From the NCBI GenBank assembly GCA_964538765.1, contig CAZIHS010000001.1, positions 19,966 to 83,965 of the forward strand: DNA of 64,000 bases, given 5' to 3'. Shown piece by piece: positions 10,080-43,533 of the stretch (its first letter is position 1; each line of letters starts with the position of its first letter). Source of the DNA: an uncultured Gammaproteobacteria bacterium (GTDB taxonomy: Bacteria; Patescibacteriota; Microgenomatia; UBA12405). A program made the position numbers and the translations under genes. Under the pieces are notes generated by a model. That model did no database searches and had not been told where the DNA came from. It saw only the letters and a list, made by a program, of their open reading frames with translations.

Positions 10080-11492
10080 CTACCGACTGATTTTTTTATT
10101 TTCAGTAATTTTCGAACTTTTTGCCAAAAGAGAGGCAATTTTTCGGAGCTGGGAGGGAGTGTTCAGCTTGGGGTTACTTTCGACCTTGGTAAATAAGGAT
10201 TGAAGAATTTGCCCTACTTTCGGCCCGGGTTTTAGATCAAGAAGCTCCATAATCTGATGGCCATTGATTTTTAAATCTTTCACCGAAAAAGGCTGTTTTT
10301 GAACCTCAACTATCCTTTTTTTGAAAAGTTCCCACCGCCAGCTGGTTTCTTTGGCACCAGATCCAAGCCGGTCGGCCCGGCGCAGGGAGATCATCTCGTC
10401 AATGTATTCTGGAGTAACGTTTCGGATAAAACGGCGAACAGCTTTGTCGGTTTGAATTTCAGAGGCTGTAAACATGTGCCATCTGACTAAACGGAAAAGA
10501 AGATCAAGCTCTTTGCTGGAAAGTCGAAGCCGCTGGCCAATATTTTTGGCGATTCTGGCACCAACCACCTCATGGTTATGAAAGGTCCGTTCTTCACCCT
10601 GACCAACCATAACCTGCGGTTTGGCGACATCATGAAGAAGGCAGGCGAGGCGGGTTATTGGGTTTTGGCTGGAACAACAATTTAGTGTTTTTAGACTATG
10701 GTTCCAAACATCATCAATATGGTGACCTTTTTGGGCAATACCAACCCCGCTTAGAATTTCCGGCATAATGTGGGCTAAAAGCCCGGAATTACGGAGTAAT
10801 TTAATGCCATCGGCTGGGGATGGAGATTTAAGAATTTTGAGAATTTCGTCGCGGACGCGTTCAAAGGCGATAAGTTTGATTTTGGCAGCATTTTTAACAA
10901 TAGATTGGAATGTATTTTCCTCAATGATAAAACTGATTTGACTGGCAATCCGAACTGCCCTGATCATCCGCAAGGAGTCTTCCTGAAAACGCTGGTCGGC
11001 ACTGCCAACAGTTTTTAGAAGCCCGTTTTTTAAATCTTTCTGGCCATCATACGGGTCAATAATTTCAAGTTTGGGTGTCGACAGGGGGTTTTTGACCAGC
11101 AGGGCAATAGCGTTGATGGTGAAGTCACGGCGCATCAGGTCTTCTTCAAGAGTCTTGCCCCATTTAACAGCATCGGGATGCCGACTGTCTGAATAACCCT
11201 GATCAGTGCGAAAAGTGGTTACCTCGTATATATTTTTTTGGCAACCGACAATGCTAAAGGTGCCAAATTTGTTGTTACAAAAACTGTTTTTGGGAAAAAT
11301 AACAGCCATTTTTTCGGGCGTCAGGTTGGTCGTAAAATCCCAATCGCTGACTGCCCGACCCATAAGGAGGTCACGGACAGCGCCGCCGACGATGTAAATT
11401 TCGGCATTGGATTTTTCAAATTTAGCGATTATTTTTAGAACTTCTGGGGGTATTTGGCGAACAAGTGACTGGAGATGGGTATTATTTTCCAT
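10080..11492 (-). CDS. cca: CCA-adding tRNA nucleotidyltransferase / poly(A) polymerase family protein with HD domain
   Basis: Head-domain motif IYIVGGAVRDLLMGR...DWDF and a downstream HD-like region (HHIDDVWNHS). Confidence 0.8.
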   Translation of the reverse strand: MENNTHLQSLVRQIPPEVLKIIAKFEKSNAEIYIVGGAVRDLLMGRAVSDWDFTTNLTPEKMAVIFPKNSFCNNKFGTFSIVGCQKNIYEVTTFRTDQGYSDSRHPDAVKWGKTLEEDLMRRDFTINAIALLVKNPLSTPKLEIIDPYDGQKDLKNGLLKTVGSADQRFQEDSLRMIRAVRIASQISFIIEENTFQSIVKNAAKIKLIAFERVRDEILKILKSPSPADGIKLLRNSGLLAHIMPEILSGVGIAQKGHHIDDVWNHSLKTLNCCSSQNPITRLACLLHDVAKPQVMVGQGEERTFHNHEVVGARIAKNIGQRLRLSSKELDLLFRLVRWHMFTASEIQTDKAVRRFIRNVTPEYIDEMISLRRADRLGSGAKETSWRWELFKKRIVEVQKQPFSVKDLKINGHQIMELLDLKPGPKVGQILQSLFTKVESNPKLNTPSQLRKIASLLAKSSKITENKKISR

Positions 11493-18609: not shown

Positions 18610-19518
18610 GTGGTTTGGTTCTTTCTATTTTTTGTTTTTTGGCATGGTCATGCCATGGCTCAAAGTTCAGTGGCAACTCCATCGGCGGCAACAACAGAAA
18701 CACCCGTTCCGACAACAATACTTCTTAATCCCGCTACTGGAATATATATAAACGAATTTTCTCCGTATGGACTACCCGAATGGGTGGAAATATTTAACAA
18801 TAATGACGTTGCGGCAAAGTTGGAAAACTGGAAAATTAGTGAGGAAGACAATTCAGTCAAAAGTTTTACTGCCGAAATTAACCCCAAGTCATATTATTCG
18901 ATAGATTATTCCGGGTATAAGTTGAACAACGACGGCGATACAGTCAAGGTTATTAACAACCAGGACGCTGTGGTTGACTCACACAGTTTTGGCACATCGA
19001 TCTCAGTTTTACCCTGGTCGAAACAGTTGGGTGGAGAATGGTGCCAAACAGAAGCCAGCCAAAATGCCGCCAACAACACCTGCCCCACTCCACCCCCAAC
19101 ACAGACGCCAACCCTGCCACCAACTCCAACTCTCTCCCCAACTCCAACAACACCCAACTCCCCTACCCCAACCAAAACACCAACCCCCACCCATTCGCCA
19201 ACCCCAACTCATTCGCCGTCCCCAACCAATTCACCAACAGCCAGCAAAACCCCCACTCCCACCAACTCCCAAACACCAACCAAAACACCAACATTAGATC
19301 CAAGTCCAACAATAGATCCTTCTCCCACAATAACAGAAGAGGAAATAGTTGAGACTGATGACAATAAGGTTGGCGAGGTTGCCGGAATCAGCGAGGTATT
19401 GCGGCCAAGCCCAACCGTGGCCGCCAGCAATAAAAACGGTTTTAATTATATACCAGTGGTTTTCATTGCTTTTGGTGGTTTGTTATTATTAATTCCGGTA
19501 ATAACTCAAAAATTATGA
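18610..19518 (+). CDS. Secreted lamin-tail-domain (LTD) protein with Pro/Thr-rich linker and C-terminal TM anchor
   Basis: GTG start. Signal peptide ...HAMA/QS, LTD-like YINEFSPYG...WVEIFN...NDGDTVKV, a (S/T)PTPT repeat tract, and C-terminal [22 protein letters not shown]. Confidence 0.6.
19080..19320 (+). repeat. Degenerate tandem CCAAC(T/C)CC(A/C)AC-type repeats encoding a PTPT/SPTPT linker
   Basis: Direct repeats are visible in the sequence. They produce spurious ORFs in the other frames of both strands. Confidence 0.6.
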
Positions 19519-19889
19519 CGAAAAAATATATCCGTTTTTTACCAGCGGTTATTTGGATGGGAGTAATATATTATTTTTCTGCCAGCACAACCACAGGAGT
19601 GCCACTGACAGGCTGGTGGCGTTTTTTGGTTTTCAAGTCATTTCACCTGATCGAGTATGCAATCCTGGCAGTGCTATTATGGTGGCCACTTGGAAAAACA
19701 ACTCCAACCCTGATGATTTCATATCTATACGCTGTTTTTGATGAAATACACCAAAGGTTTACGGTTGGCCGGGGCAGTAAATTCAGTGATACCATTATCG
19801 ATTTGACAGGAATAGTGGCCGGACTTCTTCTAATAAAATTGGCAAGCGCCATATACCGAAAAATATTTTATAAGGAAAATTACTTTTGA
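19515..19889 (+). CDS. VanZ-like family membrane protein
   Basis: [11 protein letters not shown] ... DEIHQRF...[12 protein letters not shown], matching the conserved VanZ pattern. Confidence 0.6.
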
Positions 19890-20956
19890 AAAGGTTCCAA
19901 ACCGCTATTTTAATAATGAGGCTGTTGACAAAGATAGCCAGGACGTTAATTTTGGTGGCGGCTGGAATTGTGGTGTTGTTTGGCCCACGGAGCGCCAGGG
20001 CCGAGGATGTTTTGGAAAACAGGGCTATTATCTGCAAAAAAAACGAAAAAGGCTGCCGCAAAAACTTTTCTAAACCATTCTGGGTTATAGATAACCTTTA
20101 TCCTGGTTTTATCAGTTATCCGCCAACCACCTTGACAATATCCAACAAGAGAGATGAGAATTGCCGGCTTTACTTTGAGAGCAGAAATATAAAAGGGTCA
20201 GAGGTTTTAGCCAGAAAAATTAACATCAGTGTTACCGGAAATAACCAAATTAAATATGGAGGAAGTTTAGAGGCAGTTAATTTAAAGCCTCATTTTTTGA
20301 CTGATTTACCATCAAGATCAAGGCAGGATCTTTTGTGGACAGTATCGTTAGGACAGGAAGTTGGAAACGAGCTGCAAGGTCAATCTAACGTTTTTGATCT
20401 GGACTTTGATTTTAGCTGTGAGAAAGAAAGTGACGGGCAGGAAGATAAACTTTTAAATACCCAGATTTTGGGGGAAACCAGTGAATCCGGATGCAAGGAC
20501 CTGGCACCGGGGCCACCAACCAAACTCGAGGCTTTTGAAGAGGTAAACCAAATCAGATTGAAATGGCAACCGCCAAAGGATGAGGTGAGTTATTATTTTG
20601 TAAGCTACGGCCTGAAACCCGGAGTAGAAGAGGCCACCAACCCAAACATCGGCAAACAAGCCAATGAGGTGGTGATTGGAAATTTATCAGCAGGAGTTAA
20701 ATATTATTTTAAAGTAGGGGCCGGTAATGGTTGCGCCACGGGCCAAATAAGCTCGGAAATTTTTGCGATTCCAAAGGGTAAGCGGTTACCAAATTCAAAA
20801 CCACCGGGATTTCAGGGGGAAATTCTTGGTAAATCTTTCGCCGGTTTAGATTACGCTGATAACAGACAAGTCGCCAGTAAAAACCGACTGGGATTTATCT
20901 TTTTAACTTTATGGGTTTGCTTTTTTATTTATTGGCGCTTTATACTGAAAAAGTGA
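19886..20956 (+). CDS. Secreted protein with fibronectin type III-like domain and C-terminal TM anchor
   Basis: Signal peptide (ARA/ED), Cys-containing N-domain, FN3-like PGPPTKLEAFEEVNQIRLKWQPP...YYFKVGAGN, C-terminal hydrophobic helix plus RFILKK. Confidence 0.5.
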   Translation: MKRFQTAILIMRLLTKIARTLILVAAGIVVLFGPRSARAEDVLENRAIICKKNEKGCRKNFSKPFWVIDNLYPGFISYPPTTLTISNKRDENCRLYFESRNIKGSEVLARKINISVTGNNQIKYGGSLEAVNLKPHFLTDLPSRSRQDLLWTVSLGQEVGNELQGQSNVFDLDFDFSCEKESDGQEDKLLNTQILGETSESGCKDLAPGPPTKLEAFEEVNQIRLKWQPPKDEVSYYFVSYGLKPGVEEATNPNIGKQANEVVIGNLSAGVKYYFKVGAGNGCATGQISSEIFAIPKGKRLPNSKPPGFQGEILGKSFAGLDYADNRQVASKNRLGFIFLTLWVCFFIYWRFILKK

Positions 20957-24083: not shown

Positions 24084-24827
24084 CTAGCCGCTTAGAACCC
24101 GGTCGATAATGGCTTTGGCCTGTTCATAGGGCAAAGCTCCCGGTATTAACTCTTTTTTGCCATTTTTGCCAACTACAATTGTACCTGGGGTACCATTTAT
24201 TCCGGCGGAACTGCCGCCGCTCATCTGCTCGGTGACCTTTTTGGTAAACTTGCCGGAAGCGAGGCACTGATTAAACTTGTCTTTGTTGACGCCGATATCG
24301 GCGGCAATGGTGGCGATTTGTTCTTTAGTAAAACTGGTACCTGTGCTTTGCGTTTTTTCGTAGACGGTGTCGGCATATTGCCAAAATTTATCTTTACCAC
24401 CTATGTCGGCAACACATTCTGAGGCTTCAGCTTCCATTTGGGCATTTGCATGAAAGGGTAACGGATAGTGCCGGTATACCCAAGCCACCTTGTTACCATA
24501 CTCTTTGGTTAACCGTTGAATGGTGGGGTGAAAACTTTTGCAAAAGGGACATTCAAAGTCGGAATACTCGACCAAAAGAACGTCGGCGTTTTTGTTGCCG
24601 CGGATGTGATCATCTGAAGTTACCGGCGGGAGAGCATCAAGGTTGGGGGTTGGTTCGGCCGGCTGGGGATTGTTCTGGTTGGGGTTGGCGTCAACATTGT
24701 TGGCACCATTGGTTTTATTTTGAGCTTTAAGATTGTTAATGTTGACAAAGGTGTATGCAGAAAATAGCGAAACAAAGAGAGACAAAACTAAAAACGGGGT
24801 TACCCAAGATCGATCGGTTTGGTTCAT
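24084..24827 (-). CDS. DsbA-like thiol:disulfide oxidoreductase, membrane-anchored
   Basis: N-terminal TM helix, low-complexity N/P/Q linker, thioredoxin fold with CPFC active site. Confidence 0.75.
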   Translation of the reverse strand: MNQTDRSWVTPFLVLSLFVSLFSAYTFVNINNLKAQNKTNGANNVDANPNQNNPQPAEPTPNLDALPPVTSDDHIRGNKNADVLLVEYSDFECPFCKSFHPTIQRLTKEYGNKVAWVYRHYPLPFHANAQMEAEASECVADIGGKDKFWQYADTVYEKTQSTGTSFTKEQIATIAADIGVNKDKFNQCLASGKFTKKVTEQMSGGSSAGINGTPGTIVVGKNGKKELIPGALPYEQAKAIIDRVLSG

Positions 24828-24904: not shown

Positions 24905-26296
24905 TTAAATTTCAACCAAGCTTAGGGAACAGTTTGAGCCTTCGATTAGCCAGTTGCGTCCGTGCATAATGGCGATTAACTCCCCTTTTTGAACCAGTTT
25001 GTTCTTTTTTAGCCGGGAGATTAATTTTGATTGCCAGTTTTTACCCGGGTCATTTTCAAAAAGAAGCGTTTCGATTCCATAGGAAATCGAGAGATTTCTG
25101 GCGACTTTTTGACTGTCGGTGACCGCAATAGTGGGTGTTCTCAACCTCTTGGCAGAAACAAGTTTGGCACTGGTACCCGACTTGGTCATTATTACCACCC
25201 GGCTAATTTCGGGTTGAGAATTAAGCACCATGGTTTCTAAAGAGTTGGCCAGAATGGCACCGGCAGAGAGAACTCCCCCAAACATTATCGGGGAAGCGAT
25301 TTTATCCTGACAATAACGGCCGATTTCAACCAATTGCTCGACGGCCTTTAGCGGATAATCACCAATCGAAGTTTCCTCGGATAACATAAGACAATCGGCG
25401 CCGTCAAAAACAGCATTGGCCACGTCGGTGGCCTCGGCCCTGGTCGGGAAAGGATTTTTAACCATTGAAGACAATATCTGGGTGGCAACAATAACCGGCT
25501 TACCAAAATGGCGACATTTTTTTACGATATCTTTTTGGTGAAGAGCCAGCTCTTTTAACGGAACCTCAACTCCAAGATCGCCGCGGGCAATCATTACCGC
25601 GTCGGCTTCTTCAATGATTTCGTCAAGATTGTTAAGGGCCGACTGGTTTTCAATTTTGGCAATAATGCCACCCTTAAATTTTAAGCTATGCAGTTTTTTC
25701 CTTGTTTGGCGAATATCTTCACCTTTCCTGACAAAAGATATGGCGGCGAAGTCAACGTCGGATTCAAAAACCGGACAAAGTCTATCGATTTCAATTTGGT
25801 CAAAGACAGGCAGGTCGTTGTCTTTCATTGGGAAATTTACAGACTTGTGGTCGGTTAAAAGATAGTTTCGGGTGGCCCTAACTTTAAGGAGATGACTTTG
25901 CTTTTCAACTATTTCAAAGCGTAGATTGCCATTATCGATGTACAGGTCATCGCCGATGTCGATTTTTGGCCAACCCTTTTGAAGATAAAGGTCGTGCGGA
26001 CCAGATTTGGATGCGGCATCAGCGACAATATATTCCCGGCCAAAGATTATGTTTAGCGGTTGATTGGAACTAAGCTTTAAACGCCTCTCGGGACCGGGAA
26101 GGTCAATAATTATGGCAACTTTTCGTCTCTGGCTTTCTGAAATAAGCCTGGTTTTTTTGATTAGATTCTGGTGCCAGTCAAGGGTGTTATGTTTAAGATT
26201 AAAACGAAACGCATTAACACCATATTTGATTAGTTTATCTATTTTATCCTGGCTGGCGGGTCCAACGGTGGCGATCACTTTAATTTTTGGAGTCAC
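24905..26296 (-). CDS. pyk: Pyruvate kinase
   Basis: KIKVIATVGPAS N-terminus, MIARGDLGVE motif and a C-terminal regulatory domain. Confidence 0.9.
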   Translation of the reverse strand: MTPKIKVIATVGPASQDKIDKLIKYGVNAFRFNLKHNTLDWHQNLIKKTRLISESQRRKVAIIIDLPGPERRLKLSSNQPLNIIFGREYIVADAASKSGPHDLYLQKGWPKIDIGDDLYIDNGNLRFEIVEKQSHLLKVRATRNYLLTDHKSVNFPMKDNDLPVFDQIEIDRLCPVFESDVDFAAISFVRKGEDIRQTRKKLHSLKFKGGIIAKIENQSALNNLDEIIEEADAVMIARGDLGVEVPLKELALHQKDIVKKCRHFGKPVIVATQILSSMVKNPFPTRAEATDVANAVFDGADCLMLSEETSIGDYPLKAVEQLVEIGRYCQDKIASPIMFGGVLSAGAILANSLETMVLNSQPEISRVVIMTKSGTSAKLVSAKRLRTPTIAVTDSQKVARNLSISYGIETLLFENDPGKNWQSKLISRLKKNKLVQKGELIAIMHGRNWLIEGSNCSLSLVEI

Positions 26297-26622
26297 TACT
26301 AAAGATTAGCATAAGGATGCCGACGGTTTTTGTCTGTGTGTATTTTTTTTGTAGTCTGTTTTCTTTTCTATGATGTATAGTATATTTTTATCTATTTTTC
26401 CTTATTTGTTGTATTATTTATGTTTTTTGTATTGTAATGCATGTGTGTTCTTTTTTGTTTGCTAATTCGCTAATTTGCCTTTTCTTCTATAATATCCTTG
26501 TTTTGCGAATACACTTGACAAGATGTTTGGGTGGTGGTTTAGTTAATCAAATCATTATTATTTTTTTTAAAGTTTTTACTGCCCCTATTTGCAGGTTTTA
26601 CTTTAAAAATAGAATCAAGGAC

Positions 26623-27255
26623 ATGAAGAAAAAGATTTTCATCAGTCTGCTGATAATCACAGCGGTTGGCGGCTTAGGTTTTGCTGCTACCCGAGCCTTC
26701 TTCACCGACAGAGAGACAAGCACCGGAAGTACCTTCACCGTGGGTACGATGGACTTGGCGGTTGGTGATGCTAATGGAAGCAATGTGGATCCCTTTGTAA
26801 TCGAGGGGATTGGCGCTTCCGGCGATATTAGCGGATCAAAAACCTGGACAGTTAGAAACACCGGTTCTTTGCCAGGTCGGGTTTATTTTAAACTCGACAA
26901 CGTTGTAAATTATGACAACGGATGCAATGAACCTGAGGCTTTAGTTGACACCACTTGTGGTACCCCGGGAGCAGGCCAGGGTGAACTTGGAAATGTAATC
27001 ACAGCTAAAGTAGCGTGGGACGGAGTTGAAAAGGTAAATTCGACTTTGGCGACCGCGAATCAAGGCAAAATCGGGACCGACTGGTCGGCCTTGACTCCGA
27101 TTATTCTCCAGGGCGGGGAGTCGAAAACATTAAAAATGGAATGGGCAACAGGCCAGAATGATTATGGCAACGAAATTCAAAGCGACAGCTTGACTTTTGA
27201 CTCCGTATTCGACCTTGAGCAACTGGTGACCCCAAGTGCCGTTCCGACTTTGTAA
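26623..27255 (+). CDS. Secreted TasA/camelysin-like protein with SipW-cognate signal (cargo 1)
   Basis: Start placed at MKKKIF. Signal peptide followed by ATRAFFTDRETSTGSTFTVGTMDLAV (A-x-F-x-D-x-E ... G-T-x-D-L pattern). Confidence 0.55.
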   Translation: MKKKIFISLLIITAVGGLGFAATRAFFTDRETSTGSTFTVGTMDLAVGDANGSNVDPFVIEGIGASGDISGSKTWTVRNTGSLPGRVYFKLDNVVNYDNGCNEPEALVDTTCGTPGAGQGELGNVITAKVAWDGVEKVNSTLATANQGKIGTDWSALTPIILQGGESKTLKMEWATGQNDYGNEIQSDSLTFDSVFDLEQLVTPSAVPTL

Positions 27256-27310
27256 CACTGGTTAATGATTAGAAGATAGGGGGGGGTGGCGACACCCCCT
27301 ATTTTAATAA

Positions 27311-27835
27311 ATGAAAATAGTACAGATAATTGTTGAAACAGTTTCTTGGTCGTTTTTGCTGGTTTTGGGCGGAATGATTGGTTTAACAGCACTTTCCAAT
27401 AGTAATATGACCGGAAGTTACCACTTTTTTCTGGTTCAATCGGGGTCGATGGAGCCCTCGATTATGACCGGGGATATTATTGTCGTTAACCAGCAGAAAC
27501 AGTATAAAAAAAATGAGGCAGTTACTTTCACCGATAATAAAGGCAGGCGGGTGACCCACCGAATAGTTGACATTAAAAACGAAGGAGGGAAAACGATTTT
27601 TTTGACAAAAGGGGACGCCAACCGGACATCGGATAATGACAGCATAACTGCCGATAGAGTGGTTGGGAAGGTGGTGTTGGTTGTGCCAAAGCTTGGCTAT
27701 TTGGTTGCTTTTAGTAAATCTTTTTGGGGGTTAATTGTTTTGGTTTTATTACCTTCAACTTTGATTGTGGTTGACGAAGTAGTTAAGATTGGACGGAACC
27801 GAAAAGTTGCTTCGCAAAATGAAGCCCGTAACTAA
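27311..27835 (+). CDS. sipW: Signal peptidase I, SipW/Sec11 (S26B) type, copy 1
   Basis: N-terminal TM helix and catalytic motifs SGSMEPS (Ser), THRIV (His), GDAN (Asp). Confidence 0.75.
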   Translation: MKIVQIIVETVSWSFLLVLGGMIGLTALSNSNMTGSYHFFLVQSGSMEPSIMTGDIIVVNQQKQYKKNEAVTFTDNKGRRVTHRIVDIKNEGGKTIFLTKGDANRTSDNDSITADRVVGKVVLVVPKLGYLVAFSKSFWGLIVLVLLPSTLIVVDEVVKIGRNRKVASQNEARN

Positions 27836-28388
27836 AATAGTTCTTTTGGTGGTTTTGGTCGTTTCAACCTGTCTTTTGCTGACAGAAGTAACCGACGCTG
27901 ATTTGTTTGATGAAGAGGTGGTGACCGGAAATAAGTTTATGGTAACCACTTTAGATTTTTCAACTAGAGATACGGCTAATTTAACAATAGTGAATTCCCT
28001 GTTTAGAACCATAAATATAGTCAGGGGCGGTTTCGAGGTGAGGGCGGTGAGGCTGAAGAAAGATGGACAACTTGATATCCCCTATCATCTGGCGGCCTCT
28101 ATCATTAGCTCCAGTTCACCTTTATGCAGTGCCTTAAAGTTGAAGATAATAAAACAGAACCAGTTTATATACAACGATAAATTATCGCTTCTTAATTTGG
28201 ATGGAAAGATTGAGGGCGATAGCTACGAAGATTATATCTTTATCCTGTATCTCGACCAGGCCGAAGCAGAAGTGATGAATAAATCCTGTGAATTTAATTT
28301 TTCTTTTGTTTCCAGACTTAACGGTGGAGTGTCCGGATTAAACGACCGGGAAGACGTGCTCAATTATGTTTCTTCAGGTAGCTGGTGA
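27819..28388 (+). CDS. Secreted protein with SipW-cognate-like N-terminus (cargo 2)
   Basis: Start placed at MKPVTK. Hydrophobic signal sequence followed by TEVTDADLFDEEVVTGNKFMVTTLDFS. Overlaps sipW copy 1 by 17 nt. Confidence 0.45.
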   Translation: MKPVTKIVLLVVLVVSTCLLLTEVTDADLFDEEVVTGNKFMVTTLDFSTRDTANLTIVNSLFRTINIVRGGFEVRAVRLKKDGQLDIPYHLAASIISSSSPLCSALKLKIIKQNQFIYNDKLSLLNLDGKIEGDSYEDYIFILYLDQAEAEVMNKSCEFNFSFVSRLNGGVSGLNDREDVLNYVSSGSW

Positions 28389-28406
28389 AATGCTATTCTA
28401 TTTCTA

Positions 28407-28928
28407 GTGATTAGAAATACTTATTACTTGCTGATCGGGGGGCTGATATTGATGTGTCTTTTGGTGATTGTTACCTCGGAAAATTTTCATTCTGTTTTTA
28501 ACTTTTACGCAGTAACCTCAAACTCAATGAGCCCGGTGATTGCACCAGGAAGCATTGTGATAATCCGCAATGAACAGACTTATCTGACGGGAGAAATTAT
28601 ATCTTACGACCACCCAAACTCGGGAAACAATCAAAATTTACAAACAACAACCCACCGAATTATTCACATTTTGGACACAACCAGAGGAAAGGCTTATGTA
28701 ACTAAAGGCGACGCCAACCTAAGCTCGGATCAGGCGATTGTTTTTCCGGAAATGATAAAAGGGAAAGTGAAAGTTGTTATACCCGCAATTGGCTACCTGG
28801 TACTTTTTTTAAACCAGCCTTTGGCAAAAATATGGTTTATTCTGTTGCCAACGGTGGTGATAGTTTTAATTGAGCTTTATAAAGTCGGACTAGGTTTGTC
28901 GGGCAAGGAATTTAATTTTCGACATTAG
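28407..28928 (+). CDS. sipW: Signal peptidase I, SipW/Sec11 (S26B) type, copy 2
   Basis: N-terminal TM helix and motifs TSNSMSP, THRIIH, GDAN. Confidence 0.75.
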   Translation: MIRNTYYLLIGGLILMCLLVIVTSENFHSVFNFYAVTSNSMSPVIAPGSIVIIRNEQTYLTGEIISYDHPNSGNNQNLQTTTHRIIHILDTTRGKAYVTKGDANLSSDQAIVFPEMIKGKVKVVIPAIGYLVLFLNQPLAKIWFILLPTVVIVLIELYKVGLGLSGKEFNFRH

Positions 28929-29546
28929 TTCTTTTGTTTTATCCTTAACCAGGATTCGATTTTCGACCGAGCCGGTTGGCGGAATAGACTGGCCGATATT
29001 TATCCAATAGTTTCGACCAAGATACCAAAGCATCCTGTCTTTTTTGTTGGCCAAATTTATATTAATTTTTTTTATTTTTTCCTTTTGAACATGAAAACCC
29101 ACAGGAATAATAGGAACGCCGGCGGCCAGCGCTAAACGGACGGCTCCGGTGTGGGGCCGGCCATAGCCGGTCTTTGGACTTAGTTTTCCCTCTACAAAAA
29201 CGACAATACTGTGGCCATTTTTTAGGCGTTCAAGTGCCTCGGCAAAAGCTTCCTGACCGTGGTGGGGGTCAACTGGGATATGTCCACTCTTTTTAAGATA
29301 CCAGCCAAACAGCGGAACGGTAAATACTGAGCGGTGGATAAGAATACTCAATTTTTCAGGAAATAGTATTGGCATCAGGAAGGGATCGGTGGTCGAGGGG
29401 TGGTTGGCGACAATAACCCGGGGAGTGGAAAATAATAATGGTTCTTTTTTAAGGCGGATGCTAAGAAATAATCTGGCATAGGTTTTAACAATATATTGGC
29501 CAATTTTGTAGGTTACTAACTCGGAAGTCATAGGATATGATAGCAT
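28890..29546 (-). CDS. plsC: 1-acyl-sn-glycerol-3-phosphate acyltransferase-like (LPLAT family)
   Basis: HxxxxD acyltransferase motif region VIVANHPSTTDPF, then FVEGKLS and PIIPV blocks. Confidence 0.65.
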   Translation of the reverse strand: MLSYPMTSELVTYKIGQYIVKTYARLFLSIRLKKEPLLFSTPRVIVANHPSTTDPFLMPILFPEKLSILIHRSVFTVPLFGWYLKKSGHIPVDPHHGQEAFAEALERLKNGHSIVVFVEGKLSPKTGYGRPHTGAVRLALAAGVPIIPVGFHVQKEKIKKININLANKKDRMLWYLGRNYWINIGQSIPPTGSVENRILVKDKTKELMSKIKFLARQT

Positions 29547-41326: not shown

Positions 41327-42610
41327 TTATCGATAGCTTATTTTATCGTAATTGTATGTTTGGATGGCATTTTCTATTCTTCTGGTTACCTCGATAACAA
41401 CAGAAACAACAATTAGAACGCTGGTACCACCAATGGTGATGGTAGTAATCCCGGTGGCTTTTTGAACAAGTGATGGGGAAATGGCGATTAGACCAAGGAA
41501 AACGGCACCAACAGCAACAACACGGTTGACTAAATACCGGATCCTGTTTTCAGTGGCCTGTCCGGGGCGGATACCGGGGATGAAACCACCTGACTTTCGA
41601 AGTTCGTCGGAAATGTCCTTTGGTTTAAATACGACAGATGTGTAGAAAAAAGTGAAGGCAATGACGAGGACAAAATAGAAAAGCATATAAAGGTAGCTGT
41701 CGGTGCGAAAAAGTCTGGCGATGGTTAGGGCTGCTTGAGAAATTAGAGGCTGAGGAAGCCGGCCCAAGAACTGGCCCAAAAGAGAGGGAACGGTGGCAAG
41801 TGAAACAGCGAAAATGATGGGCATAACTCCAGCAGTATCAACTTTTATGGGAAGATAGGTTACCTGGGCCCGCCTGGCATAGTGAACCGGAATCCGTAAA
41901 ACGGCCTCTTCAACCATAACAATGGCTAAAATCAAACTGACCGCAAGGATAATAAAGACAATGAGATTAAAACCGGTTTGCGGATTGGAAAAATCGGTAA
42001 GGTTGGCTGTTTGAAACAAGCTTATTGGCATCCGGGCAATAATGCCTGCAAATATTATCATCGAAATGCCATTACCAAGGCCAAACTGATTAATCAGCTC
42101 GCCTAAAAATATCATGACCATGGTTCCCGCCAACATGCTGGCAATCATGGCCACTAAAGTTAGTGGAGAGAGGTTGGTAATAATGTTTTGGGAACGAAGA
42201 ATACCATACATTCCAATAGACTGAACAATTGATAACGGGACAGTGGCAAAACGGGTGTACTGGTTAATTTTCGCCCGCCCATACTCCCCTTCTTTAGACA
42301 ATTGTTCAAGTTTGGGAGAAACAAGTGTAAAAAGTTGAAGCATTACCGAGGCGTTAATGTAGGGGTTGAGACCGAGTGCAGCGATAGAAAAATTTGCCAG
42401 AGTTCCTCCAGAAAATATGTCTAATAGAGACAAAAGCTGATTCTGGGCAAAAAAGTTTCGAAGCAGACCCAGGTTTACCCCGGGAACAGGAATGTGAGCA
42501 ATCAGCCTAAAAAGGATTAAGACAGAAAGAGTAAATAATATTTTCTGCCTTAATATGGGTGTTTTTATTCCCTCAAGATATAGAGAAAGGGCCTTTATAA
42601 TCCGATTCAT
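41327..42610 (-). CDS. secY: Preprotein translocase subunit SecY
   Basis: Ten-TM protein with conserved SecY blocks ([20 protein letters not shown]). Confidence 0.9.
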
Positions 42611-43059
42611 TAGTCTATACTACCACCGGCGCCAATGATTTTTTTACGGGCTGCCGCCGAGACTTGTATACCTTTTAGATGCAAGGCGTGGCTGATTTGC
42701 CCACGGGAAAGAATTTTAATATAAAAAGGTCTTTGAGGAACCTGAGAAGGGATCTTTTCTTTTATTTTAGCCGGGTTAATTTCAGCGGTTTTGGGAAAAA
42801 CCGCCGCCAGGCTAGAAAGACTAAGGGTTAGAACTACTTTTTGAGAATTGAGGCGGTGTTTACCGCGATAAAACGGTAACCTCTTTATCCACGATTTCTT
42901 AATTTTGGTGCCGTCAAAGGTAATTTTGGTTTTTCCCCTTGCCTTGTCTCCCTTGGCTCCCCGACCAACGGTATGACCGCCAACTCCCGAACCGTAGCCA
43001 CGTCCAAGCCGTTTCTGGGATTTACCCTTAATTTTAACAAGCTGATGAATTAGAGACAT
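42610..43059 (-). CDS. rplO: 50S ribosomal protein L15
   Basis: Gly/Arg-rich N-terminus ([21 protein letters not shown]). Confidence 0.85.
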
Positions 43060-43062
43060 ATA

Positions 43063-43533
43063 CTAGCGGTTTAACTGCGATAATGCTTTTAAGGTTGTCC
43101 AAACGTTTAAGGATTTGTTGCGGGAACCAATGATTTTGCTGGCGAGATCTTTGATGCCGGCAACTTCGACTACTGCCCGAACCGGACCGCCGGCAATTAA
43201 GCCGCTACCCGATTTGCCCGGCCGAATTAGAATGCGGGCACCCTTATATTTTAAAGCGACACTTTTTCCAATCGTGCCATCTATTATGGGAACCAGAATT
43301 AAACTCTTTCGGGCTTTATTAATTGCCTTTTGAATGGCATCGGCAACACTTTTTGCTTTTCCTAAACCAACTCCGACTTTGCCCTTTTTGTCACCAGTAA
43401 CTACCAGGGCGGTAAAGGATATTTGGTTTCCACCCTTTGATTTATTGGAGACTCTTTTAATCTCGACAACTTTATCGACAAATTCGGTTTCCACTTTTTC
43501 AAACCGGTAGAAGTCTTTGCTGTTTTGGGCCAT
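43063..43533 (-). CDS. rpsE: 30S ribosomal protein S5
   Basis: dsRBD-like N-terminus and S5 C-domain. Immediately adjacent to rplO with no L30 gene between them. Confidence 0.9.
   Translation of the reverse strand: MAQNSKDFYRFEKVETEFVDKVVEIKRVSNKSKGGNQISFTALVVTGDKKGKVGVGLGKAKSVADAIQKAINKARKSLILVPIIDGTIGKSVALKYKGARILIRPGKSGSGLIAGGPVRAVVEVAGIKDLASKIIGSRNKSLNVWTTLKALSQLNR

Follow-up and report, generated by a model that had tools for sequence, protein, structure and literature searches.

A conserved cassette of TasA-like secreted proteins and SipW-type signal peptidases in Patescibacteria, a candidate operon for an extracellular fiber

Gene content of the locus

The DNA analyzed here is a 64-kb stretch of contig CAZIHS010000001.1 (the window), and the locus under study occupies positions 26623 to 28928 of its plus strand. 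Four tightly packed open reading frames (ORFs), flanked on both sides by blocks of minus-strand genes, encode two secreted proteins (cargos) that alternate with two signal peptidases: cargo1 (26623 to 27255; 210 amino acids [aa], ATG start at 26623), sipW-A or sipW1 (27311 to 27835; 174 aa), cargo2 (27819 to 28388; 189 aa, ATG start at 27819), and sipW-B or sipW2 (28407 to 28928; 173 aa, GTG start). A preliminary description of this DNA had reported the four co-oriented genes in the order cargo1-sipW1-cargo2-sipW2, with cargos of 210 and 189 aa and a 17-nucleotide (nt) overlap between cargo2 and sipW-A, and all were found as described, as were the motifs SGSMEP, TSNSMSP, THRI (twice), GDAN (twice), AFFTDRETSTGSTFTVGTMDLAV, and ADLFDEEVVTGNKFMVTTLDFS. 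Chance does not account for this pattern, as cargo1 and both peptidases pass the cutoffs of curated hidden Markov models (HMMs) and the N-terminal motif of cargo2 is nearly invariant in 77 homologues.

Cargo1 matches PF12389, the TasA/camelysin family (Peptidase_M73), over residues 2 to 200 of 210 with 23.4 bits against a cutoff of 22.5; the margin is small, and many homologues have a precomputed match to the same model. It also matches TIGR04088, the SipW-cognate signal, at residues 10 to 42 (23.7 bits; cutoff, 19). The signal peptide is predicted to be cut after T-R-A (residue 25), where the donor-strand segment FFTDRETSTGSTFTVGTMDL follows. More than 385 homologues of cargo1 were identified, the named ones nearly all from Patescibacteria, and their database labels include SipW-dependent-type signal peptide protein, TasA family, CalY family, and M73 metallopeptidase. 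As the homologues are 200 to 211 aa in length, the start at 26623 was preferred. The public protein record for cargo1 (P0003) is 272 aa long and starts at 26437, 62 codons before this ATG, so that its extra N-terminal part falls in the AT-rich intergenic region; this start is probably miscalled and over-extended.

An AlphaFold2 model of cargo1 made from 48 sequences has a predicted local distance difference test (pLDDT) score of 72.9, with a confident beta-sandwich core. Using Foldseek, the Sulfolobus donor-strand thread 7pnb_A was found as the first match, ahead of the pilin domains of CfaB, CS17, and PapG, and the best structural matches were fiber-form TasA, AbpA, and donor-strand pilins. 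The scores were modest but agree with the sequence models, and the cargo1 family profile gave no meaningful match when compared with PDB sequences. Mature cargo1 contains no histidine, and neither an invariant His nor an HExxH motif was found in the family alignment; a zinc protease is very unlikely for these reasons, and a role as zinc metalloprotease was set aside.

Both peptidases pass TIGR02228, the model for archaeal-type (S26B) signal peptidases (SipW-A, 97.8 bits; SipW-B, 75.9 bits; cutoff, 51.85), and both fail the LepB-type model TIGR02227 (27.1 and 21.3 bits, respectively; cutoff, 47), in line with their earlier assignment to S26B rather than LepB. Neither reaches the cutoff of 190 bits set for NF046067, the Bacillus SipW equivalog (109.4 and 65.8 bits, respectively), and because of these scores both are classed here, from their sequences, as SipW-type enzymes that are not Bacillus SipW orthologues by NCBI's criterion. 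SipW-A has N- and C-terminal transmembrane segments and carries its catalytic Ser, His, and Asp within SGSMEP, THRI, and GDAN; the corresponding motifs of SipW-B are SNSMSP (as TSNSMSP), THRI, and GDAN. In both enzymes the catalytic His (THR) stands where LepB has Lys. The two share 32% identity.

Cargo2 has no match in Pfam or NCBIfam. It fails PF12389 and TIGR04088, the latter giving no match at an E value of ≤1 for cargo2 and none among 77 members of its family; one of the 77 matches PF12389 (E = 5e-4), and none matches a curated family convincingly. A word-indexed search returned only cargo2 itself and one homologue, wrongly hinting at an orphan, and an exhaustive profile search was used instead, which identified 410 representatives at an E value of ≤1e-3 (179 at ≤1e-10), most of them of about 190 aa. 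In the 77-sequence alignment the motif T-[D/S]-A-D-[L/I/F] ... N ... A-T-T-L-D-F-S, which comes after the signal peptide, hardly varies, and a Cys pair and a C-terminal G-x-W are conserved. Cargo2 is predicted to be cut after T-D-A (residue 27), followed by DLFDEEVVTGNKFMVTTLDF, and its Cys pair is C103/C157.

Pairwise alignment of cargo1 and cargo2 is confined to the signal peptide and the 28 residues after it, without gaps and with 11 of the 28 identical. Twenty-one residues lie between the cleavage-site Ala and the TLD[LF] motif in each, so the SipW-cognate layout described earlier for both cargos stands, the cargo2 segment being in ungapped register with that of cargo1. The P1' and P2' residues differ, being F-F or Y-F in cargo1 and D-L in cargo2. 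Comparison of the two family profiles using hhalign gave an alignment of 129 columns that extends far into the beta-sandwich (96% probability; E = 4e-9).

The two families are linked by a third. Its member in the window (19886 to 20956, plus strand) is a TasA-like/FN3 protein of 356 aa whose N-terminal part comprises a signal peptide and a segment with Cys-x6-Cys; a TasA-like body and an FN3 domain follow, a transmembrane anchor lies at the C terminus, and the donor-strand motif is lacking. By hhalign its entire body matches the cargo2 family (96.9%; E = 1.8e-10), and its match to the cargo1 family runs through the C-terminal strand GNE-Q..S..FD.DF (86.6%; E = 4.4e-6). Owing to the profile-profile match to the cargo1 family and to this bridging family, cargo2 is considered TasA-like: by these comparisons it is a highly divergent, full-length protein of the TasA superfamily, a relative and not a member of PF12389 as defined by the curated model. 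Long cargo2-like relatives do pass PF12389 through their N-terminal 80 to 100 residues (P0267, 28.6 bits; P0237, 25.1 bits; P0208, 22.7 bits). The cargo2 family profile matched none of the PDB sequences, TapA (6hqc) included, and cargo2 may work as a functional analogue of TapA but is not its homologue. Of the earlier expectation that both cargos would satisfy SipW-cognate and TasA-family models, the part concerning cargo1 stood (TIGR04088 and PF12389) and that concerning cargo2 did not, its likeness to TasA emerging by profile-profile comparison only. Similarly, "tandem duplicated" describes the locus only in a deep evolutionary sense, given the 32% identity of the peptidases and a relationship between the cargos that is confined to the profile level.

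Conservation and expression signals of the cassette

Eighty loci from species-representative genomes, anchored on cargo1, were fetched and their ORFs scanned with HMMs for cargo1 (c1), cargo2 (c2), and SipW (sip); with the window and locus L001 this made 82 loci. They derive from Roizman-, Shapiro-, Woese-, and Levybacteria (Microgenomates) and from Moran-, Falkow-, and Paceibacteria. The form seen in the window, c1-sip-c2-sip, is the commonest (51 of 82 loci), so that the arrangement is not a duplication peculiar to one genome, the synteny comparison showing it to be the prevailing form of a Patescibacteria-wide cassette. A further 17 loci are c1-sip-c2, 14 of which have more than 2.6 kb of downstream sequence. 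Four are c1-sip-c2-c1-sip, and two related loci are c1-sip-c2-c1, one ending at the contig end (L001) and the other (L043) having a weak 39-bit sip, below the filter, between c2 and the second c1. The remaining eight comprise duplicated c1 variants, truncated contigs, and one masked-sequence locus (c1-c2-sip). As no other neighboring gene family occurs in more than 16 of the 82 loci, the cassette is a self-contained module.

At some loci cargo2 is succeeded by another cargo1-type gene and then by a peptidase of clade A (see below) (L001, at 10524 to 11195; L018, L049, L073, L075, and L077), and L018 and L070 contain additional cargo1-like genes that are very divergent (23 to 36 bits). These extra genes suggest lineage-specific diversification of shaft subunits. 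Many of the cassette-bearing third-party-annotation metagenome-assembled genomes (L002, L011, L013, L016, L017, and others) are titled "uncultured Gammaproteobacteria" or "Pseudomonadales," and one "Limisphaerales"; such titles probably reflect placeholder or erroneous taxonomy rather than horizontal transfer.

A neighbor-joining tree of 137 SipW sequences from the related loci resolved into two clades, clade A (n = 85), which includes SipW-A, and clade B (n = 52), which includes SipW-B. Clade A enzymes are always encoded after a cargo1-type gene, including the second peptidase of the c1-sip-c2-c1-sip loci, and clade B enzymes always directly after cargo2. The Ser, His, and Asp motifs are at least 90% conserved in both clades. 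With the two clades tracking the type of the upstream cargo, the peptidase duplication is ancient and structured. The cleavage motif of cargo2, tested as a sign of strict specificity, is the same at loci with and without SipW-B. The two dedicated peptidase-substrate pairs proposed earlier thus hold as far as the clades follow their cargos and fail at the 17 loci that do without a second peptidase and keep the cargo2 cleavage motif unchanged. On this phylogenetic pattern SipW-B is best described as an old paralogue coinherited with cargo2 and dispensable in some lineages.

In-frame SipW-cargo2 fusion proteins were found in metagenomic data (P0241, P0259, P0260, P0220, and P0265). In the first four the peptidase motifs are kept, and a second hydrophobic segment and a T-x-A|D-L site lie between the domains; in P0265 the SipW motifs are N-terminal and the cargo2 domain occupies residues 205 to 381. 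Unless they are artifacts of assembly or gene calling, these four may be self-processing polyproteins. Together with the exclusive synteny, the fusions suggest that the SipW enzymes cleave the adjacent cargos at T-x-A. Other long proteins combine a cargo2-like N-terminal domain with C-terminal LTD, CBM96, Big_13, or FN3 domains, LTD domains being joined in this way in, e.g., P0185, P0190, P0196, and P0211. Such adhesin-type C-terminal domains would, as expected, fit a cargo2-like tip subunit.

The region upstream of cargo1 (26297 to 26622, plus strand) is AT rich and lies between divergent genes. An AAGGA ribosome-binding site directly precedes the cargo1 ATG. A consensus scan places a possible promoter at 26588 to 26615, promoter-like matches being no more numerous there than in shuffled sequence. 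Between cargo1 and sipW-A, a GC-rich stem-loop (27281 to 27300, plus strand), GGGGGGTG-GCGA-CACCCCCT, is followed by the T-rich tail ATTTTAATAA and is a putative partial terminator or mRNA-stabilizing hairpin. Of 79 related loci, 38 have a hairpin of -10 kcal/mol or stronger at this site, compared with 17% of control windows placed within the cargo1 gene. Stems from different loci are unrelated in sequence, and hence it is the structure and not the sequence that recurs after cargo1. From the sipW-A stop codon to the cleavage-site Ala of cargo2 the median distance across related loci is 74 nt, about the length of a signal peptide, which means that in nearly all of them cargo2 begins right at the end of sipW-A or overlaps it. 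The hairpin and the gene coupling suggest a pattern suited to an abundant major subunit followed by accessory genes expressed at a low level.

A possible donor-strand fiber and its alternatives

In Bacillus subtilis, the mature N terminus of TasA (residues 28 to 38) is a donor strand that completes the next subunit, and the N terminus of TapA resembles this strand and nucleates the fiber by supplying the first one (PMC9674648, PMC10151520). LepB does not tolerate the aromatic Phe close to the cleavage site of TasA, which makes for a poor LepB substrate (PMC10269814). Against this background, the cassette is a self-contained operon that probably builds an extracellular TasA-type donor-strand fiber, with cargo1 as the major and cargo2 as the minor component. 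SipW-A, the adjacent Ser/His peptidase of SipW type, would remove the cargo1 signal peptide after T-R-A, and the exposed strand, FFTD...F...GTMDL, would be inserted into the following subunit's beta-sandwich, as happens with Bacillus TasA. Cargo2, made at a low level through translational coupling to the peptidase gene and with its strand in the same register, could donate the first strand as nucleator or distal tip. SipW-B, where present, would probably cut the acidic site of cargo2 (A|D-L-x-D/E) after T-D-A. Cargo1 is accordingly regarded as most likely the major fiber subunit, and cargo2, by analogy, as most likely a minor subunit, nucleator or distal tip; what points to N-terminal donor-strand exchange between them is the conserved strand motif and its register. 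The earlier suggestion of TasA-like fibers or a surface layer survives in part, since a single fiber of major and minor components fits the expression signals, and two fibers or a surface layer fit them less well.

Several observations weigh against such a fiber. About half of the loci lack a hairpin after cargo1. The 17 loci without SipW-B and the unchanged cleavage motif of cargo2 weaken a strict specificity of SipW-B for cargo2. The structural model of cargo2 is of low confidence (pLDDT, 56.7; two-sequence alignment) and gave only generic jelly-roll matches. In addition, the TasA-like body of cargo2, unlike the complete Ig fold of TapA, could mean that cargo2 is an ordinary in-chain subunit or forms a polymer of its own.

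An alternative, in line with the pairs proposed earlier, is that cargo1/SipW-A and cargo2/SipW-B are two independent, dedicated pairs, each with its own homopolymer or surface layer. The match between SipW clade and upstream cargo type is without exception, the c1-sip-c2-c1-sip loci included, the P1' and P2' residues of the cargos differ (F-F or Y-F versus D-L), and a full TasA-like domain in cargo2 could in principle self-polymerize. However, cargo2 occurs without SipW-B at 17 loci (14 with ample downstream sequence), with its cleavage motif unaltered, and it is virtually always in one tight operon with cargo1, coupled to SipW-A and not to SipW-B; natural fusions likewise link it to the upstream SipW domain, and the identical donor-strand register of the cargos suggests that they complement each other. 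Independence of the pairs is therefore considered improbable, if not negligibly so.

Two further explanations, each rated still lower, dispense with the fiber or with the pairing. The cargos could be monomeric secreted or surface proteins, whether camelysin-like M73 proteases, TasA proteins with an antimicrobial or spore-coat-type function, or adhesins, for which SipW would merely be the secretion peptidase; PF12389 is named as a metallopeptidase family, some homologues are labeled "M73 family metallopeptidase," and the structural matches are modest. Mature cargo1, however, has no His and its family no invariant His or HExxH, the N-terminal segment that serves as donor strand in TasA (PMC9674648) is the most conserved feature common to cargo1 and cargo2, and the best structural matches are fiber-form TasA, AbpA, and donor-strand pilins, which leaves monomeric cargos very unlikely. 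An equally small chance is given to the two SipW-type enzymes being general housekeeping signal peptidases that adjoin the cargos incidentally. Genomes of the candidate phyla radiation (CPR) are reduced, and no LepB-type motif occurs within the 64-kb window, yet in 80 independent Patescibacteria loci the SipW genes are always embedded among cargo genes while the other neighbors vary, an exclusive linkage not expected of a housekeeping gene, and gene overlaps and in-frame fusions bind SipW to cargo2.

If the cassette does encode a donor-strand fiber, the anchored TasA-like protein at 19886 to 20956 may end it and tether it to the cell. Relatives of this protein lie at most 0.3 kb from the cassette in L001, L027, L049, and L057 and about 6 kb or less from it in L016 and L018, and it is a candidate for the cell-surface anchor or terminator of the fiber. 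A more elaborate and speculative version, which is considered improbable, is a modular three-part, cell-anchored donor-strand pilus, in which a cargo2-family protein would be tip or nucleator, cargo1 the shaft, and the 19886-to-20956 protein a membrane-anchored terminator accepting the last donor strand, with the SipW clades divided between aromatic and acidic residues at P1'/P2' and thereby controlling the order of assembly. In some lineages the tip would then carry adhesin domains (LTD, CBM, or Ig), and in others it would be joined to a peptidase of its own. Were this so, the pilus would be a candidate host-attachment organelle of episymbiotic CPR cells, distinct from type IV pili.

Upstream of the anchored protein, the window encodes on the plus strand a surface protein with a Lamin Tail Domain (LTD; 18610 to 19518) that has a long linker rich in Pro and Thr and is anchored by a C-terminal transmembrane segment, and after it a VanZ-like membrane protein (19515 to 19889). 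The fusion of LTD domains to cargo2-like domains elsewhere hints at a functional link. The minus-strand block upstream of the cassette includes pyruvate kinase (24905 to 26296) and, about 1.8 kb from the cassette, a secreted DsbA-like thioredoxin with a CPFC motif (24084 to 24827); the downstream block includes an acyltransferase (28890 to 29546) and ABC-2 transporter genes. The thioredoxin is not conserved as a neighbor at other loci. Cys pairs are conserved in both cargo families (C101/C112 in cargo1; C103/C157 in cargo2), and these suggest extracytoplasmic disulfides. A regex scan of the 64-kb window found no further SipW-type cargo and no LepB-type peptidase.

The window had been described as CPR-like, and this was borne out, as the named relatives are nearly all from Patescibacteria. 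In its ribosomal protein operon (42610 to 43533, minus strand), S5 (43063 to 43533) is directly followed by L15 (42610 to 43059) and then SecY; no L30 gene is present between S5 and L15. This absence is typical of CPR/Patescibacteria and supports a Patescibacteria origin of the window.

The CPR/Patescibacteria, most of which are uncultured, rely on host-cell contact, and to our knowledge type IV pili are the sole surface appendage studied in them. A conserved, compact TasA/SipW-type cassette is thus a testable candidate for a second kind of extracellular fiber in this group. The cargo2 family, with its 410 representatives, constitutes a protein family without a curated model, the second SipW clade could show how S26B peptidases choose their substrates, and the idea of a TapA-style nucleating donor strand is extended to a system with a TasA-like minor component. 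An earlier database survey had reported TasA homologues (PF12389) from Patescibacteria (PMC9245690), and cargo1-type proteins are already named by routine annotation pipelines. With a TasA homologue and SipW in Patescibacteria already known, the locus is an extension of existing knowledge rather than a surprise. Full-text literature searches yielded no description from CPR of the conserved cassette of four genes, of cargo2-family proteins, of two SipW clades, or of SipW-cargo2 fusions; the cassette, the family of cargo2, and the second clade of peptidases appear to be undescribed.

Comparison with known fiber systems

A close parallel is the tapA-sipW-tasA operon of B. subtilis (PDB 8aur and 5of1), where an archaeal-type signal peptidase is likewise encoded between two secreted proteins (PMC9674648, PMC10151520). 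Both systems have a major subunit, putative in the cassette, that matches PF12389 and carries a signal of TIGR04088 type; in TasA the mature N terminus of this subunit is the donor strand. In each, a second secreted protein has a donor-strand-like N terminus and a gene that overlaps the peptidase gene (for tapA/sipW, see PMC10151520). The order differs, being major-sipW-minor-sipW here and minor-sipW-major in Bacillus, and there are two peptidase paralogues here and one there. The minor protein is a divergent TasA-like protein, probably a jelly-roll, in the cassette and a TapA-type Ig fold in Bacillus; moreover, the subunits here are shorter (about 185 and 162 aa when mature) and have conserved disulfide-type Cys pairs, and the host belongs to the Patescibacteria. 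The sipW-tasA-(capP)-calY locus of Bacillus cereus resembles the cassette in combining two paralogous TasA-family cargos with SipW, and one of its cargos serves as the principal component of the filament, with accessory factors assisting (PMC4292775; PMC13082335). TasA and CalY are, however, close paralogues that both match PF12389, whereas the second cargo of the cassette is too divergent for curated models; B. cereus has one sipW, and no CapP-like gene was seen at the locus studied here.

Donor-strand complementation also underlies the chaperone-usher pili (Fim/Pap and CFA/I), in which the major pilin gene is expressed well above the downstream minor genes and tip subunits carry extra adhesin domains, and whose CfaB, CS17, and PapG pilin domains were among the Foldseek matches of the cargo1 model. 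Their machinery is nonhomologous, the cassette containing neither chaperone nor usher, and in a monoderm-type envelope the strand would be exposed by signal-peptide cleavage; the resemblance is one of principle only. The AbpA/AbpB pili of Pyrobaculum calidifontis (7ueg) and the threads of Sulfolobus (7pnb), both among the top matches of the cargo1 model, are built from TasA-like or similar beta-sandwich subunits with N-terminal donor strands, and their relationship to the cargos is detectable by structure only. A signal peptidase is integral to the cassette, in contrast to the archaeal loci, which have no dedicated one, and for the archaeal bundling pili a second, larger secreted protein has been proposed as fiber nucleator and tip adhesin (PMC9245690).

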